DNA from: a phage
Length of the DNA stretch: 64,000 bases
Sequence record: PZ452591.1
Direction: 5' to 3' (one strand)
Under the pieces are notes generated by a model. The model saw nothing but the letters and a program-made list of their open reading frames with translations. It was not told the DNA's origin and did no database searches. Made by a program: the position numbers and the translations under genes. Shown piece by piece: positions 3,729-59,860 of this stretch (position 1 is its first letter; the number at the start of each line of letters is the position of its first letter).

Positions 3729-3944
3729 TTAATCGTCGCAGTCGACGCTCAATTCCCAGAATTCTTCTACGGTATAAGTTTCAGTATCATTTTCAATACA
3801 GAAACGTTCATTACTGTTATTTGCTAAAGTAGCATTAACTGTCGGTTTCTCGCTAGTGCTCTTAAGAGGTGAAATACGAATTAACTGATCACCGTTATCT
3901 AAACAAAAAATTTCACCAACTTTTACATCTTTAAAAATTTTCAT
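3729..3944 (-). CDS. hypothetical protein (71 aa)
   Basis: ORF with GAGGTG SD. Confidence 0.5.
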   Translation of the reverse strand: MKIFKDVKVGEIFCLDNGDQLIRISPLKSTSEKPTVNATLANNSNERFCIENDTETYTVEEFWELSVDCDD

Positions 3945-3952
3945 AATTCACC

Positions 3953-4060
3953 TCAAGGAGTATAAAATCCAAATGCAGTTGTTGACCATCCCATCCAATA
4001 TGGAAAATTTGCACCAATGTAAAACATAAGAATATAAAACCAACCGCTCAGCAAATTCAT
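3953..4060 (-). CDS. small membrane protein (35 aa)
   Basis: ATG overlaps upstream TGA (ATGA); MNLLSGWFYILMFYIGANFPYWMGW... Confidence 0.35.
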   Translation of the reverse strand: MNLLSGWFYILMFYIGANFPYWMGWSTTAFGFYTP

Positions 4061-4257
4061 CATTTTACACCGTTCCAAATTGTTTCAACCACGGATTTTA
4101 AACCATTTTGATGAATATCCATTCCGACTACCGTCATCAAATAAATTCCAACTACAACTGAACCTAAGGCAAAAATCAGCATGAAAATGAATAAAGCCGG
4201 AAAAATATTATCGAAAAACCATTCAATAAATGTAAAAGCACTGCGTTTACGCTTCAT
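4060..4257 (-). CDS. small membrane protein (65 aa)
   Basis: GAGG SD before ATG at 4257; hydrophobic core; track start extended. Confidence 0.5.
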   Translation of the reverse strand: MKRKRSAFTFIEWFFDNIFPALFIFMLIFALGSVVVGIYLMTVVGMDIHQNGLKSVVETIWNGVK

Positions 4258-4264
4258 ATTTTCC

Positions 4265-4378
4265 TCACATAAATCCAAAGTAAGCGTTTAATACATCAAT
4301 CATTAAAACGATTGGGAATATACTCAAAACTATTAGTATTATAACTACATTCCATATAGCTTTAACAATCTTTTTCAT
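4265..4378 (-). CDS. small membrane protein (37 aa)
   Basis: GGAGGAACAG SD then ATG at 4378 (MKKIVKAIWNVVIILIVLSIF...); track N-terminus reads through promoter cassette. Confidence 0.4.
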   Translation of the reverse strand: MKKIVKAIWNVVIILIVLSIFPIVLMIDVLNAYFGFM

Positions 4379-4381
4379 TTT

Positions 4382-4455
4382 CTGTTCCTCCGTAGTTGAT
4401 AGTTGTATAGTACCACAGAGGAACAGTCTTGTAAACAACTTTTTTTTTAAAAATA
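4382..4455 (-). promoter_or_regulatory. early promoter cassette with flanking 9-bp inverted repeat (PeSL-like); -35 GTTTAC at 4431-4436
   Basis: Inverted repeat CTGTTCCTC 4382-4390 / GAGGAACAG 4418-4426 brackets the -10; A/T UP tract 4441-4450. Confidence 0.5.
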
Positions 4456-4545
4456 TTCGTAATAAATGTGAATACCAACTACTACCGCTGAAACTTGCAC
4501 AACCCACCACGCACAAGCAATAAGTACAGAATTCAAAATTTTCAT
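4447..4545 (-). CDS. possible small membrane protein (32 aa)
   Basis: GAGG SD, ATG 4543-4545; MKILNSVLIACAWWVVQVSAVVVGIHIYYEYF; 3' end overlaps promoter. Confidence 0.25.
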   Translation of the reverse strand: MKILNSVLIACAWWVVQVSAVVVGIHIYYEYF

Positions 4546-4628
4546 AATAACCTCATCACAAAAGTAAATGTTAAACAAATTACTGGAATACTAATTAACC
4601 AAACAAAACACCACCACAATGAACTCAT
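4542..4628 (-). CDS. possible small membrane protein (28 aa)
   Basis: ATGA overlaps at both ends; MSSLWWCFVWLISIPVICLTFTFVMRLL. Confidence 0.3.
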   Translation of the reverse strand: MSSLWWCFVWLISIPVICLTFTFVMRLL

Positions 4629-4888
4629 AGTTCAATCTCAACGATTTTCATTTCATTACTATTAATAGCCGCTTTAAGACTATCTGAAAGAATTACATTC
4701 CAGTGGTCATTCATATGACCATTAACTAAGCGTGTAATTTCTTCAGGAGTTGAAAAATAAGGCTGATCAGACTCCCAATGCGATAATCCTAAGCGAGTAT
4801 AAATCATGCCTTCATCATCGCTAGAATATTCAACTGACACAAACTCATCAGTTATTTTATGCTTAGCATAATAAAATTTAAATTTCAT
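4625..4888 (-). CDS. hypothetical protein (87 aa)
   Basis: GGAGAG SD then ATG at 4888 (MKFKFYYAKHKITDEF...); track extension is promoter read-through. Confidence 0.5.
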   Translation of the reverse strand: MKFKFYYAKHKITDEFVSVEYSSDDEGMIYTRLGLSHWESDQPYFSTPEEITRLVNGHMNDHWNVILSDSLKAAINSNEMKIVEIEL

Positions 4889-15184: not shown

Positions 15185-15422
15185 TAATAATCGCCTTATA
15201 AAGATAGCTAATTTCGCCTAAAATATAATCATTGATTGTAACAGTTTTCACTTCACCACAAAAGAATTCTAACGCAATTAAATCTCGTTCAATTTCTTCT
15301 AATTGAAGCCTCAACTTACTAGATTCTATTTTTACAGTTTCACGATTTTTGCTATAAGCAATTTCATAAATTTCGCTTACTTTATCTTGAAGAAGATAAA
15401 ACTGATCTTTAGTTATTTCCAC
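15177..15422 (-). CDS. hypothetical protein; no in-frame ATG, probable GTG start
   Basis: GAGGAAG SD 7 nt before GTG at 15420-15422; track start is TTG. Confidence 0.4.
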   Translation of the reverse strand: MEITKDQFYLLQDKVSEIYEIAYSKNRETVKIESSKLRLQLEEIERDLIALEFFCGEVKTVTINDYILGEISYLYKAIIND

Positions 15423-21924: not shown

Positions 21925-22443
21925 TTAATAGCCTCGATCTTGACGTGCGAAATTTTCGGCATTTTTCAGATAATAAAGTTTAAAGATTTCTTCAGCTGAC
22001 ATTCCAAGAGCAATAAATTTATTCATGAAAAAGTGAAATTGGTCAATCAGTTCAAATTTAATTTCAAGCTGATCTTCGGGAGATAAATCTTGAATTTTCT
22101 TGGATTGCATTTCAGAATAACGTTTCTTCCAAGGTTTCCATACAGCAGAAGCTTCTTTTTCACCATTACTCATACCACCAAGAGAAGTATATAGCTCGCG
22201 AGTTTCGTCTGCGATATAATCGTCTTGGTTTCGCAGCCAAGCAAGAACTTCTCCTGCGGTTTCAAGTGAATCAGGATGACGATTTGTTTCTGGCTTATCA
22301 TTAGCCAAACGAATCTGTAAAGACCGCTGCATATCAAGCATAACCTGCAATGGGTCTTTTTCATCACCGAGAATATCCCGGTATTCATTTTGAGCTTTAT
22401 CAACACCTTCGATCAAATGAGCGCATTCATTAAAGTGAGCCAT
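21925..22443 (-). CDS. 56: gp56 dCTPase/dUTPase
   Basis: Protein from MAHFNECAHLIEGVDKAQNEY... recognised as T4 gp56; track start is upstream extension. Confidence 0.85.
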   Translation of the reverse strand: MAHFNECAHLIEGVDKAQNEYRDILGDEKDPLQVMLDMQRSLQIRLANDKPETNRHPDSLETAGEVLAWLRNQDDYIADETRELYTSLGGMSNGEKEASAVWKPWKKRYSEMQSKKIQDLSPEDQLEIKFELIDQFHFFMNKFIALGMSAEEIFKLYYLKNAENFARQDRGY

Positions 22444-22469
22444 TATTTTTCCTTTCAATTCATGGGTTA

Positions 22470-22502
22470 GTAGATTAATTATACAATAAATATATAAAGC
22501 AA
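22470..22502 (-). promoter_or_regulatory. putative MotA-dependent middle promoter for gene 56
   Basis: Minus strand TTGCTTTA (MotA-box-like), 11 nt, TATAAT at 22478-22483. Confidence 0.4.
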
Positions 22503-22514
22503 TAAGGAGGACAT

Positions 22515-22715
22515 ATGGTACAAAAATTAATGGCACTTGTTGATGCCATAAAAGGTAATAAGAAACGTATAGCTTTTACTATTTCTGCTATGGTAGGAAT
22601 TTTACTCTGGAACTTTATTTTATCACCTGTTGCAATTGCTCATGGTGTTAATATTCCAGTAGTTACTCTTGATACATTCGTAGATTTAGCATTTGCTTTA
22701 GTTGGGTTAATTTAA
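22515..22715 (+). CDS. small membrane protein (66 aa), only plus-strand gene in window; convergent with gene 61
   Basis: AAGGAGG SD 5 nt before ATG; hydrophobic segments (AFTISAMVGILLWNFILSPVAIA; FVDLAFALVGLI); stop overlaps gene 61 stop. Confidence 0.5.
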   Translation: MVQKLMALVDAIKGNKKRIAFTISAMVGILLWNFILSPVAIAHGVNIPVVTLDTFVDLAFALVGLI

Positions 22716-23740
22716 ATCTTAGCATATTTAGATAGCCGCATTTTAGCCATCAACCCCTGTGCAATATTATTTTTCATATATTCCATAATTTGTTCAGTGG
22801 TTGCACCTTCCTTTCTAATCATATCATTAACATCTTTTGATTTCCAGGGAGATTTATCCCAAAACATAACCCTTTCTCCTGCATCAACTAATTTAGTCAT
22901 TCGCTTAATAGTGTCAGGGTGACGAGGTTCATTATCTAAGACCCACACACGTCTATCTTTAAATGGAACAACTTCTAGGTCTAATTGACCACCCGTAATA
23001 GCTATACCATTTTCAATAAAAAGTGAATCTATAGGTCCTTCTAGAACATATACATCACCATCTTTAACTCGTTCTACTCCATAGATTTTTGTTGCCTCAG
23101 GATAAGCTTTGATGGTGATATATTTTTGAGGAGCATCTTTCTTTAATGCACGCCCTTGAAAAGACTCAGCTTTTCCATTAGCATTATAAATTGGAATAAC
23201 AAGACGAGGCTCAGGTATTTCCTTTTTATATGTTCCCGGTGCTATACTATTAACTAATTTAGGCCATTCAGTTGTAAACCAAAGATATTTCCATTTATCC
23301 TTTGGAATACAACGAGCTTTTACGTATTTTATAATTGGATGGTCTTCCGCCAGTTTATCTAATCTAACACATGACGGAAGAGATTTAATTATTTTCTTCT
23401 CAGGTTGTTTAGGAAGTTCTTTAAGTTTTTCTACTGGACGACTTTTACCTTTTTCTTTTCTTATTTCAAAGATATACTCACGATATAAATCAGGTTCAAA
23501 CTCCTTTAAATATATTCCGATTGGTGCATGATAGTTACAGTTATAACAATGAATATTTCCTTCATTATTATCACCATAATACCATCCACGGGCTTTATTT
23601 TGGTCGGTTTTTGAATCTCCACACACTGGGCATCTAAACCGCAATTTAAAAGTTGAACTATTATTTACTTGTGTGAATTTAGGTAAATGAGCTAATGCAC
23701 GGTATGCAAACTCATTATCAATCCAAGGTATTGATGACAT
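22712..23740 (-). CDS. 61: gp61 DNA primase (342 aa)
   Basis: Zinc ribbon CPVCGDSKTDQ...CYNCNYH; position and length match T4 gp61. Confidence 0.9.
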   Translation of the reverse strand: MSSIPWIDNEFAYRALAHLPKFTQVNNSSTFKLRFRCPVCGDSKTDQNKARGWYYGDNNEGNIHCYNCNYHAPIGIYLKEFEPDLYREYIFEIRKEKGKSRPVEKLKELPKQPEKKIIKSLPSCVRLDKLAEDHPIIKYVKARCIPKDKWKYLWFTTEWPKLVNSIAPGTYKKEIPEPRLVIPIYNANGKAESFQGRALKKDAPQKYITIKAYPEATKIYGVERVKDGDVYVLEGPIDSLFIENGIAITGGQLDLEVVPFKDRRVWVLDNEPRHPDTIKRMTKLVDAGERVMFWDKSPWKSKDVNDMIRKEGATTEQIMEYMKNNIAQGLMAKMRLSKYAKI

Positions 23741-23742
23741 TT

Positions 23743-23907
23743 TTACTCTTCTTTTTCTTTAGATTCCTCTTTTTTCTTTTTAGGAATCTGTTCAGGACCT
23801 TTATTTACTACAGCGCCTGATGTTGTTCCAGTAGAGATATTTTCAGGATTACCACCTGAATCTCCAGCGACCATATCTTCTTTGATAAATTCTTTATATG
23901 TTTTCAT
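23743..23907 (-). CDS. possible small Lys/Glu-rich protein (54 aa)
   Basis: GAGG SD; TAATATG junction with upstream gene; low-complexity product. Confidence 0.3.
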   Translation of the reverse strand: MKTYKEFIKEDMVAGDSGGNPENISTGTTSGAVVNKGPEQIPKKKKEESKEKEE

Positions 23908-23908
23908 A

Positions 23909-24535
23909 TTAACCTCTATTCATAAAAGCATTAAAAATTTGGTCATCAATAGAAACATTTACTTTAGACTGTTTTTCAGATGGCAATTCATATCCACATA
24001 TTACAATTTTATAATCAATATCAAAATACACAGAAGCAATATGATTAATGATATTTTCAGTAAAGTCTAAATCAACATCAATATCTTTTTGACCAAAGCC
24101 CAAAGGATAAATAATGCGAGTAATTCGATTATCTTTAACAAAGATTCCACCGACATACTCTGTACTGCGTTTAAAGTCTACACGCCGACGAAATGAAAAA
24201 TATTCAGGCTCTTTATGAGCTCGGCTCATAGGGCACAACGAATAACTAGAATAAGAGATGTCAAATCCTACGCCTTCAATATGAACTAAATTGTCATGAT
24301 TAAACCAATTATAATCATATGCCAAGTCCATTAGATTGTCATACGTGAAAGGCACCGGATTAACATCATTGGTCACAAGCATATAATTAGCAACTGCTAT
24401 AATTTCATTATTTTTAACGAATACAAACCGTGATTGATGCGAATGGCCTGGACCTGCGTTTTCACGATTAATGATATAACACTGGGCACCTTTATATTTG
24501 TACGTGTCTTTACACTTGTGCATTTGATAAAGCAT
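23909..24535 (-). CDS. hypothetical protein (208 aa), 61.1 position
   Basis: TAATG overlap with sp. Confidence 0.55.
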   Translation of the reverse strand: MLYQMHKCKDTYKYKGAQCYIINRENAGPGHSHQSRFVFVKNNEIIAVANYMLVTNDVNPVPFTYDNLMDLAYDYNWFNHDNLVHIEGVGFDISYSSYSLCPMSRAHKEPEYFSFRRRVDFKRSTEYVGGIFVKDNRITRIIYPLGFGQKDIDVDLDFTENIINHIASVYFDIDYKIVICGYELPSEKQSKVNVSIDDQIFNAFMNRG

Positions 24536-24828
24536 TATTCACCTACCACTTCAGCGATGATATTTTTATTATTAAAGTTTTTATCGCAATACAGAACATA
24601 ATTATACTGCATTACACCACCAGATTTAAGCTGTTTTTGCACTTCAGCTTTCATTTCAGGGCGATCGCGCTCAACGATATTCATAATATCTGCTTCAATT
24701 TGAGTTTCAACCTCAGTCTGATCTGCAGTCATAGACCATTCGCACAAATCTTTATCATAACCTGCCATAGCAGGCTGAGCAGCACAAGAAGCTAAAGCAA
24801 AAATTGTAGCAAAGATAAATTTTTTCAT
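24535..24828 (-). CDS. sp: Spackle periplasmic protein (97 aa)
   Basis: Signal peptide MKKFIFATIFALASCAAQPAMA; size and position match T4 Sp. Confidence 0.75.
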   Translation of the reverse strand: MKKFIFATIFALASCAAQPAMAGYDKDLCEWSMTADQTEVETQIEADIMNIVERDRPEMKAEVQKQLKSGGVMQYNYVLYCDKNFNNKNIIAEVVGE

Positions 24829-30794: not shown

Positions 30795-30799
30795 TTCAT

Positions 30800-30870
30800 T
30801 CTCCAAATCCGTATCAGTTGATAGTTATATAGTACCATGGAAGAACAGTCTTGTAAACAGTTTTGTGAAA
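30800..30870 (-). promoter_or_regulatory. early promoter cassette (-35 GTTTAC 30853-30858)
   Basis: Conserved core CAGTTGATAGTTATATAGTACCA plus UP A/T tract. Confidence 0.5.
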
Positions 30871-30942
30871 AAAATTTTTAATGAATCCAAAAGGTCCAGA
30901 ATCATCCGTTTTTCATAAGTATAGATTTATATTACTTGTATG

Positions 30943-30964
30943 AAAAGGGGACCCGAAGGTCCCT
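30943..30964 (-). terminator. CUUCGG-type hairpin terminator after gene 43
   Basis: GGGGACC-CGAA-GGTCCCT then U4 on minus RNA. Confidence 0.55.
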
Positions 30965-30976
30965 AGATTTATTCTA

Positions 30977-39025: not shown

Positions 39026-39212
39026 TATCTAAAATGTTGAAGTTAAAAGATACAGCCCAGTCAGTGCAGACTGTAACCTTTTTAATACAATTATCTTCAA
39101 CTTCTAGCGGTTCAAACCAGTATTCAATAATTTCTTTATGACCAATATCATCTTTCACTTCACATTTAAAATGCTGACTCATCATAACATTTTTAAATTC
39201 ATCAAAAGTCAT
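38949..39212 (-). CDS. hypothetical protein (87 aa)
   Basis: ATGA overlap with gene 47. Confidence 0.45.
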   Translation of the reverse strand: MTFDEFKNVMMSQHFKCEVKDDIGHKEIIEYWFEPLEVEDNCIKKVTVCTDWAVSFNFNILDNDTPKSLRDMAVSCIKDAYCEVFDI

Positions 39213-44589: not shown

Positions 44590-44614
44590 ATCAATTCCTC
44601 AAAGGTAATTCATA

Positions 44615-44665
44615 TGTTAATAATACCATGGTTTGAACTTGTTGTAAACAACTTTGTGAAAAATA
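44615..44665 (-). promoter_or_regulatory. early promoter (-35 GTTTAC 44644-44649, -10 TATTAT)
   Basis: Read directly. Confidence 0.45.
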
Positions 44666-44730
44666 TTTTAGGGAATGATAAGAAAGGAACGATAGCTTAG
44701 AATGGTAATATACAGAATGTGAGAAAGAAA

Positions 44731-44744
44731 GGCCCAGAGGGCCC
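44731..44744 (-). terminator. GC-rich hairpin plus U-rich tract
   Basis: GGCCC-AGAG-GGCC(C) after stop at 44748. Confidence 0.45.
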
Positions 44745-44747
44745 GTC

Positions 44748-45071: not shown

Positions 45072-45354
45072 GAGAAATAATTCCTTGGTAAGCCCAATAA
45101 GGAGGATTAACAGAATCCTCGTCAGAGTTTTCTTCAGGAAAATAAACCTGGATAACAAATCCAGATGCATCAAAGGTAAAATAAACCGTAGGCAGTTCAC
45201 CTAACAATTCGGCACGAGCATTAATTTCTTCGAGATCTCGTTCACGTCCAGCCCAAAAACTAGGATTTAGACTACATTCGTAAAAATAATAGTCATTACC
45301 GAACATGTCAAAACCCTTCCAACTCTCTACCACATACCGCTCAAAACTAATCAT
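45043..45354 (-). CDS. hypothetical protein (103 aa)
   Basis: ORF. Confidence 0.5.
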   Translation of the reverse strand: MISFERYVVESWKGFDMFGNDYYFYECSLNPSFWAGRERDLEEINARAELLGELPTVYFTFDASGFVIQVYFPEENSDEDSVNPPYWAYQGIISRGTKLELKE

Positions 45355-45356
45355 AA

Positions 45357-59657: not shown

Positions 59658-59683
59658 ATTGATTCTCTTCGACTCACTCACAA

Positions 59684-59788
59684 TTACATACTCCTTTGAA
59701 TAATATCAATAATGTTGTTCACCAGATTATAAGTAAACATTGGGTAATTATATTGAATCATCACATACACAACAAACAAAACTTTCAT
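59684..59788 (-). CDS. small hydrophobic protein (34 aa)
   Basis: AAGGAGAAGA SD then ATG at 59788; directly downstream of promoter. Confidence 0.35.
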   Translation of the reverse strand: MKVLFVVYVMIQYNYPMFTYNLVNNIIDIIQRSM

Positions 59789-59809
59789 TCTCTTCTCCTT
59801 GGCAGTTGA

Positions 59810-59860
59810 CAAGATTACTATACCATAACCTTGCCAACTTGTAAACCATTAAATGACGTT
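59810..59860 (-). promoter_or_regulatory. early promoter (-35 GTTTAC 59841-59846, -10 TATAGT)
   Basis: Read directly. Confidence 0.45.

Follow-up and report, generated by a model that had tools for sequence, protein, structure and literature searches.

The plus-strand gene between genes 56 and 61 of a Tequatrovirus phage is dam.1, a conserved Tevenvirinae gene that probably encodes a late membrane protein

The 64,000-nucleotide (nt) stretch of phage DNA in sequence record PZ452591.1 (the window hereafter, meaning the whole stretch at its full length) carries, between gene 56 and gene 61, a plus-strand open reading frame (ORF) at 22515-22715, the 66-amino acid (aa) product of which is MVQKLMALVDAIKGNKKRIAFTISAMVGILLWNFILSPVAIAHGVNIPVVTLDTFVDLAFALVGLI. 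This ORF is a copy of an already catalogued family of hypothetical proteins, represented by dam.1 in T4, ORF029w in RB69 and PHROG 2024. We consider it quite probable that conservation as a gene, late expression and a location of the product in the membrane all hold together for this ORF.

The window phage belongs to Tequatrovirus, and its locus is 98.5% identical to that of Shigella phage JK38 and ~96.6% identical to that of T6. The T4 counterpart of the ORF adjoins gene 61 and its product shows 98.5% aa identity with the one in the window (E = 3e-34, tblastn), the sole difference being D10 here and N10 in T4. It is named dam.1, hypothetical protein, in the T4T record (HM137666, 17724-17924 on the plus strand; ADJ39749.1), and the 309-bp gap between dam and 61 in the RefSeq T4 record NC_000866.4 carries no annotation. 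The RB69 counterpart (RB69ORF029w, AAP75931.1) shows 52% aa identity. PHROG 2024, a family without assigned function, matches the window protein at E = 4.5e-31, with residues 2-66 of the protein on positions 1-65 of the 65-position profile. An earlier note, made from the letters of the window alone, had called the ORF an orphan; the presence of dam.1 in T4 itself, together with its occurrence in 503 Tequatrovirus records and in seven genera, refutes this. The note had also reasoned that a conserved, annotated gene of known function in T4 relatives would speak against its proposal; the gene is indeed conserved and annotated there, but a known function is not among the annotations.

At a threshold of at least 80% identity the ORF was found in 503 Tequatrovirus records (501 at 90% or above). 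The primase gene is likewise found in 503 records at 80% identity or above (502 at 95% or above) and the rI region also in 503, and from these equal counts the small gene appears never to have been lost in Tequatrovirus. A convergent plus-strand ORF of 62-74 aa occupies the same position in seven Tevenvirinae genera including Tequatrovirus, the other position matches being RB69 (Mosigvirus, ORF029w), VR26 (Gaprivervirus, two tandem diverged copies), VR5 (Dhakavirus), ZX14 (Kanagawavirus), KpV477 (Jiaodavirus) and S16 (Gelderlandvirus, gp16.1). In the T4-like phages outside Tevenvirinae (Muldoon, the RB49-like kaaroe, KP15 and Stupor), no convergent ORF was found at the 61/56 junction. Gene 56 follows gene 61 by 7-36 nt in Muldoon, kaaroe and KP15, and an unnamed same-strand ORF lies 8 nt after gene 61 in the Acinetobacter phage Stupor. 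Because the gene is absent outside Tevenvirinae, it seems to have been inserted between 61 and 56 in the ancestor of this subfamily, as far as the compared genomes indicate.

Homology searches of wider scope stayed within the same group. A phmmer search of 1.84 billion representative proteins returned phage relatives only, plus two repeat proteins, and a profile search yielded 119 clusters from 5.8 billion proteins, the sources of which were phages or phage-contaminated assemblies (full-size contigs of 160-193 kb); neither search gave homologs outside these phages. Both repeat proteins were rejected. In P0036 (1255 aa, a PQQ-like propeller) the repeats 'LLWNY..SSPAVANGVVY' mimic the conserved 'LLWNFILSPVAIAHGV' core and the match was judged spurious, and in P0032 (1822 aa) a different repeat was judged to have amplified a chance match. 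Eight diverse members of the family had no match in Pfam (E ≤ 10) or NCBIfam (E ≤ 1). Labels attached to homologs in the databases, namely 'Holin', 'head morphogenesis protein', 'DNA packaging ATPase' and 'dCTP pyrophosphatase', were set aside as annotation noise; the T6 record that labels the homolog 'head morphogenesis' also names gp56 'ferredoxin'.

The features of the locus in the window are as follows.

22515-22715, plus strand: coding sequence of 66 aa, orthologue of T4 dam.1 / RB69ORF029w / PHROG 2024
22569-22637, plus strand: predicted transmembrane helix, residues 19-41
22668-22703, plus strand: predicted C-terminal helix, residues 52-63
22503-22510, plus strand: Shine-Dalgarno sequence TAAGGAGG, read from the sequence, with a 4-nt spacer (acat) to the ATG
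22485-22492, plus strand: putative late promoter AATAAATA (gp55 consensus TATAAATA with A at -13); 22 nt separate it from the ATG
22712-22715, both strands: TTAA palindrome of 4 nt, the stop-stop overlap with gene 61
22549 to 22520, minus strand: terminator-like hairpin ATGGCATCAACAAGTGCCAT followed by TAATTTTTGT, inside ORF codons 6-12, a candidate gene 61 terminator
22478-22504, minus strand: gene 56 middle promoter, MotA box plus -10 element
21925-22443, minus strand: gene 56 (dCTPase), T2/T6-type allele, the neighbor downstream on the minus strand
22712-23740, minus strand: gene 61 (DNA primase), the convergent neighbor of the ORF

Most of what the earlier note had read from this layout stands. 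The interval between the gene 56 start and the gene 61 stop, put at ~270 bp, measures 268 bp (22444-22711), and the ORF takes up most of it. The ORF is, as claimed, a lone and well-signalled one on the opposite strand: minus-strand ORFs occupy 92% of the window, and this is the only plus-strand ATG-initiated ORF of 40 aa or more in the gaps that they leave (2% of its length is overlapped). No other such ORF has a Shine-Dalgarno sequence. The near-consensus Shine-Dalgarno sequence is present as described, but its spacer is one of 4 nt and not 5; a GGAGG-type ribosome site is kept in all relatives examined. The convergent overlap of the two stop codons is also as described, the ORF ending with TAA at 22713-22715 on the plus strand and gene 61 with its stop at 22712-22714 on the minus strand, and T4, RB69, VR26, VR5 and S16 share this overlap of 4 nt.

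The pattern of nucleotide changes bears on whether the ORF is translated. Within subtypes of the protein the proportion of synonymous differences is saturated (pS = 0.63-0.80) versus that of nonsynonymous differences (pN = 0.12-0.34), with dN/dS of 0.07-0.3. Moreover, the ATG, the GGAGG-type site and a length of 62-74 aa are preserved across the seven genera. Because minus-strand genes overlap the ORF by 4 nt at most, the constraint cannot stem from coding on the opposite strand. These comparisons show that the ORF is a protein-coding gene under purifying selection.

The late-expression part of our reading comes from the box upstream of the ORF. Late promoters of T4 have TATAAATA at positions -13 to -6 (PMC2988020; PMC1524935), and A at -13 is the commonest T4 late-promoter variant, found at 9 of the 50 listed sites (PMC2988020). 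The ATAAATA motif is ~7-fold depleted in the window, with 6 copies on both strands against 41 expected, and the full TATAAATA occurs twice against 10 expected. Besides the copy in front of dam.1, the following lie before known or documented late transcription units.

21872, minus strand: ATAAATA box before soc, a known late-transcribed gene
48472, minus strand: ATAAATA box before gene 49, a known late-transcribed gene
61623, minus strand: ATAAATA box before the rI.1/rI operon, one of the two perfect TATAAATA copies; the late promoter of rI.1/rI between tk and rI.1 is documented (PMC2962797)

The remaining two ATAAATA copies sit between a ribosome-site-like sequence and an ATG, and thus do not have promoter geometry. 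The second plus-strand ATAAATA of the window lies within 24107-24218, antisense in gene 61.2, where it directly abuts the ATG of a 34-aa ORF; it might be a late antisense start or be due to chance.

It is also evident that the box is retained in relatives. It lies 16-22 nt before the ATG in T4, RB69, VR26, VR5, ZX14, KpV477 and the further compared sequences L019-21, and the surrounding upstream DNA has diverged. The box reads GATAAATA in T4, AATAAATA in RB69, VR5 and KpV477, CATAAATA in VR26, the perfect TATAAATA in ZX14 and L019-21, and ATTAAATA in Gelderlandvirus. The plus strand of the locus yielded no sigma-70-type site. Because the box was kept while its flanks diverged, we infer a gp55-dependent late transcript with a predicted start at ~22498 and a 5' untranslated region of ~17 nt; on the same promoter sequences, the dam.1 ORF is strongly inferred to be a late gene.

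The minus strand of the same short interval carries signals of its own. The earlier note had placed a MotA-box-like middle promoter for gene 56 beside the Shine-Dalgarno sequence of the ORF, and this agrees with the published pattern: a MotA box TATTGCTTTA (TAT-TGCTTTA, 22504 to 22495), an 11-nt spacer and the -10 element TATAAT (22483 to 22478), as against the T4 middle-promoter consensus (a/t)3TGCTTtA at 12 ± 1 bp from the -10 element TAtaaT (PMC2988021). The equivalent site of RB69, too, has a predicted middle promoter (Pm:16038, PMC1524935 supplement). The late box of the opposite strand lies within the spacer of this middle promoter, which comes directly after the hairpin. The hairpin has a stem of 7-8 bp with only 3 GC pairs, followed by TAATTTTTG; it is present also in T4 and L013, and is annotated by TransTermHP in OL960580. 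It was not found in RB69, VR5, ZX14 or L019-22, and with its absence from other genera it is a Tequatrovirus-specific and rather weak signal. Folding of the entire antisense region on the minus strand gave no unusual stability (z = -1.0). Gene 61 transcripts would be antisense to the whole ORF as far as the hairpin. On the plus strand, no terminator-like site was found within 1.9 kb downstream of the ORF, so a late transcript would run antisense into gene 61. In KpV477, by contrast, the ORF and the primase gene are separated by a hairpin. The locus thus appears as a compact case of sharing by strand and by time, with a late box in the spacer of an opposing promoter, overlapping stop codons and a hairpin within a coding sequence.

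In two rival explanations the protein matters little or not at all. The region could be no more than the 3' tail of gene 61, a terminator and promoter DNA, with the ORF a chance frame in AT-rich sequence; the fall of the terminator-like hairpin inside the ORF and the blank stretch in NC_000866.4 would fit this. Such an explanation is highly improbable and is refuted by the signs of selection, because frame, length, ATG and GGAGG are kept in seven genera despite saturated synonymous sites and at the dN/dS values given above, and the hairpin itself is confined to Tequatrovirus. Alternatively, the main product could be an RNA, late antisense read-through silencing the primase mRNA and the protein being secondary. 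The absence of a plus-strand terminator-like site within 1.9 kb favors read-through, as do the overlapping stop codons, which mean that a terminator cannot sit between the ORF and gene 61, and T4 has sites where both strands are known to be transcribed, each at a different time (PMC2988020). This too seems very unlikely as the main function: purifying selection acts on the aa sequence, the hairpin of KpV477 between the two genes would stop read-through, and read-through, possible as an extra effect, would leave the conserved protein unexplained.

The protein itself has three parts. Residues 1-18 are amphipathic and basic, with a net charge of +2 to +5 in all subtypes. The earlier note had spoken of two hydrophobic segments, and they locate to residues 19-41 and 45-66. 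The first is the only hydrophobic stretch that is strong in every subtype, and for RB69ORF029w a published prediction places a transmembrane helix at 21-41 (PMC1524935 supplement). The second is hydrophobic in subtype A (T4, RB69, VR26a) and much weaker in subtypes B and K. An AlphaFold2 (AF2) model built from the family alignment has helices at 2-11, 15-42 (28 residues) and 52-63, with a predicted local distance difference test (pLDDT) score of 75. By the positive-inside rule, the basic N-terminus would be cytoplasmic; the C-terminal helix may, going by the model, span the membrane or lie on the periplasmic face.

In an alignment of 33 diverse members, W32, N33, P38 and G44 are invariant, A40 is found in 32 of the 33 sequences, P48 in 31, and G64 and an acidic residue at 53 (D/E53) in 30 each. 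The window protein has both the core W32-N33...P38.A40...G44..(L)P48 and a length within the family range of 62-74 aa. An Asn buried in the membrane and a small-xxx-small pair (A40/G44) form the type of pattern by which helices are driven to associate. Conservation along the transmembrane helix showed no clear 100-degree peak of helical periodicity, which would have pointed to a single interaction face. The protein has diverged faster than its neighbor: in RB69 its identity is 52% versus 74% for gp61, and in VR5 and KpV477 it is 23-27% versus ~63%. Three subtypes exist, and VR26 (L004) bears subtypes A and B in tandem at 1795-1992 and 2001-2201, the two being strongly diverged. Fast divergence together with subtypes and tandem copies is more in keeping with an accessory membrane protein of the interaction type than with a core structural component.

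We propose that expression and action of the gene would proceed in the following way. The gp55-type box AATAAATA would start a short leader at ~22498 that carries a perfect TAAGGAGG and allows efficient translation. Early and middle transcription of genes 61 and 56 takes place on the other strand, so the two programmes would be separated in time. The 7-kDa product would then insert into the inner membrane, its basic N-terminus staying in the cytoplasm and a single helix, residues 19-41, crossing the bilayer. The invariant Trp-Asn pair in the bilayer, followed by Pro38, Ala40 and Gly44, may serve oligomerization or binding of a partner through the helix, and the short acidic C-terminal helix with the conserved D/E53 would lie on or beyond the periplasmic face. 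The product would thus act at the envelope late in infection. As to what it does there, we put forward only tentatively that it is an oligomerizing or partner-binding accessory factor of the late envelope, most plausibly one that tunes membrane integrity, lysis inhibition or the timing of lysis; we think a part in replication or in the virion structure less likely than a late envelope role. More speculatively still, and with the odds clearly against it, dam.1 could be an unrecognized late envelope component of all T-even-type phages, acting as a partner or modulator of T/RI/RIII lysis inhibition or as a membrane protector, with antisense shut-down of the primase mRNA as a possible addition. 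If so, it would have escaped T4 genetics through its small size, its 'wrong' strand in an early region and the missing reference annotation.

Several observations weigh against a late, membrane-anchored and lysis-related protein. The link to lysis consists of no more than size, timing and membrane location. The perfect TATAAATA occurs in some genera only, T4 having G at -13 and Gelderlandvirus having ATTAAATA, and a hidden Markov model scan of RB69 for late promoters in 2006 gave no site here (PMC1524935). No published transcript start, ribosome-footprint or peptide data were found for the ORF; a T4 differential RNA sequencing study (bioRxiv 10.1101/2024.04.04.588121) reports 150 phage start sites. 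Since the second hydrophobic segment is strong in subtype A only, one span and a hairpin are both possible topologies. The confidence of the AF2 model is moderate (pLDDT 75), and a Foldseek search with it against the PDB and BFVD gave same-family members or matches of E > 0.1 only.

What varies around the gene is also informative. T4-type dam is present in only 184 of ~503 Tequatrovirus records. In the window, tblastn (E ≤ 1) found no Dam or SegF homolog, which upholds the earlier statement that dam and gene 69 are missing here; gene 69 is the former name of segF. That statement was coupled to a picture of the T4 interval that is half right: dam does lie there in T4, but segF sits between soc and 56 and not between 56 and 61 (T4T record; PMC2988022). 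Judged from these records, the variable element at the locus is dam, not the small ORF. The spacer between the ORF start and gene 56 is a hot spot of insertion, holding dam in T4, mobE (a homing endonuclease) in VR5 and a 94-aa ORF in ZX14. The gp56 of the window shows 76.6% aa identity with that of T4, compared with 98.5% for the adjacent ORF product and 98.8% for gp61, so a mosaic joint must lie in the intergenic DNA between 56 and the ORF. Gene 56 is a target of the SegF homing endonuclease (PMC2988022), and the mosaic joint fits this, the window phage being without SegF.

The idea that the gene came in as an orphan when oriA, gene 69 and dam were replaced, as a novel lysis, exclusion or host-interaction gene or as a remnant of the replacement, had its basis in the absence of dam and segF from the window and in the shortness of the 56-61 interval (268 bp versus ~1.15 kb in T4). 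It is almost certainly wrong. The same ORF sits beside dam in T4, so nothing was replaced; it is in 503 Tequatrovirus records and at the same position in seven genera, whereas dam is accessory and segF lies beyond gene 56. A holin or pinholin-like pore former would also be small, late and membrane-embedded, possibly with two hydrophobic helices as in subtype A, and UniRef labels the homolog of vB_EcoM_OE5505 'Holin'. We hold this identity to be very unlikely. No match to a holin was found in Pfam (E ≤ 10), NCBIfam (E ≤ 1) or the annotated PHROGs; the C-terminus is hydrophobic and lacks a basic tail, with a net charge of 0 to -2 over the final 24 residues and the basic cluster at the N-terminus; and the gene is not beside an endolysin or spanin gene, its neighbors being 56 and 61 in all genera examined. 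T-even phages, moreover, already have holin T. A membrane-bound morphogenesis factor or one carried in the virion, for example for prohead initiation at the inner membrane or as an aid to DNA entry, would share its late timing with the structural and assembly genes and would agree with universal retention in Tevenvirinae. Yet the gene is missing from T4-like phages outside Tevenvirinae that build the same virion, it evolves much faster than its neighbors (52% versus 74% for gp61 in RB69), and the tandem divergent paralogs of VR26 fit an accessory or host-interaction gene better; we regard such a role as improbable. An accessory membrane protein acting late at the envelope remains our preferred reading.

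Comparison with known systems places the gene more closely. T4 dam.1 and RB69ORF029w agree with it in length, 4-nt convergent stop overlap, upstream late-type box and Shine-Dalgarno sequence. It differs from T4 in that dam is missing, so that the ORF directly abuts the gene 56 side with its middle promoter, as in RB69. The T4 antiholin RI, rI.1/rI and holin T resemble it in small size, predicted N-in anchoring and a late promoter of the same type; unlike the plus strand at the dam.1 locus, rI also has an early promoter (PMC2962797). They differ from it in having no detectable sequence or fold similarity to it and in lying at a different locus, and neither genetics nor biochemistry is known to tie dam.1 to lysis. 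Class II holins and pinholins, e.g. S21-68 of phage 21, are late proteins of ~65-70 aa that contain one or two hydrophobic helices. Set against these, the dam.1 product has no basic C-terminal tail, lysis cassette or family match, and its conserved acidic residue is in the second helix. The superinfection exclusion proteins Imm and Sp of T4 are likewise small membrane or periplasmic proteins, and sp is 1.8 kb away in the window (24535-24828). However, both are products of early minus-strand genes, whereas the plus-strand signal of the dam.1 ORF is of the late type alone, and its product is not similar to them in sequence.

The finding is thus mostly a correction: the supposed orphan is a universally retained Tevenvirinae gene that is present in T4 itself, and dam is the variable part. 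Because NC_000866.4 omits the gene, a conserved and probably late membrane protein of the most thoroughly studied lytic phage would go unseen in omics work and knock-down screens that take this record as their reference. Literature on dam.1, unannotated T4 ORFs and T4 ribosome-profiling or start-site maps did not mention the gene, with the exception of the transmembrane prediction for RB69ORF029w. In the literature found, the late box with its statistics, the Tevenvirinae-only insertion between 61 and 56, the three subtypes with the VR26 tandem, and the RefSeq omission are all unreported. These points are useful annotations rather than a discovery.

Two further observations concern other parts of the window. 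Stretches of at least 150 nt outside the minus-strand ORF set are also found at 4258-4624, 15185-15408, 30795-30976, 39026-39208, 44590-44747, 45171-45356 and 59658-59848. In the comparison of the nearest relative, JK38 (3729-4885), with window positions 23743-24535, JK38 has an extra gene of 118 aa between 61.1 and 61.2, which is missing in both the window and T4.

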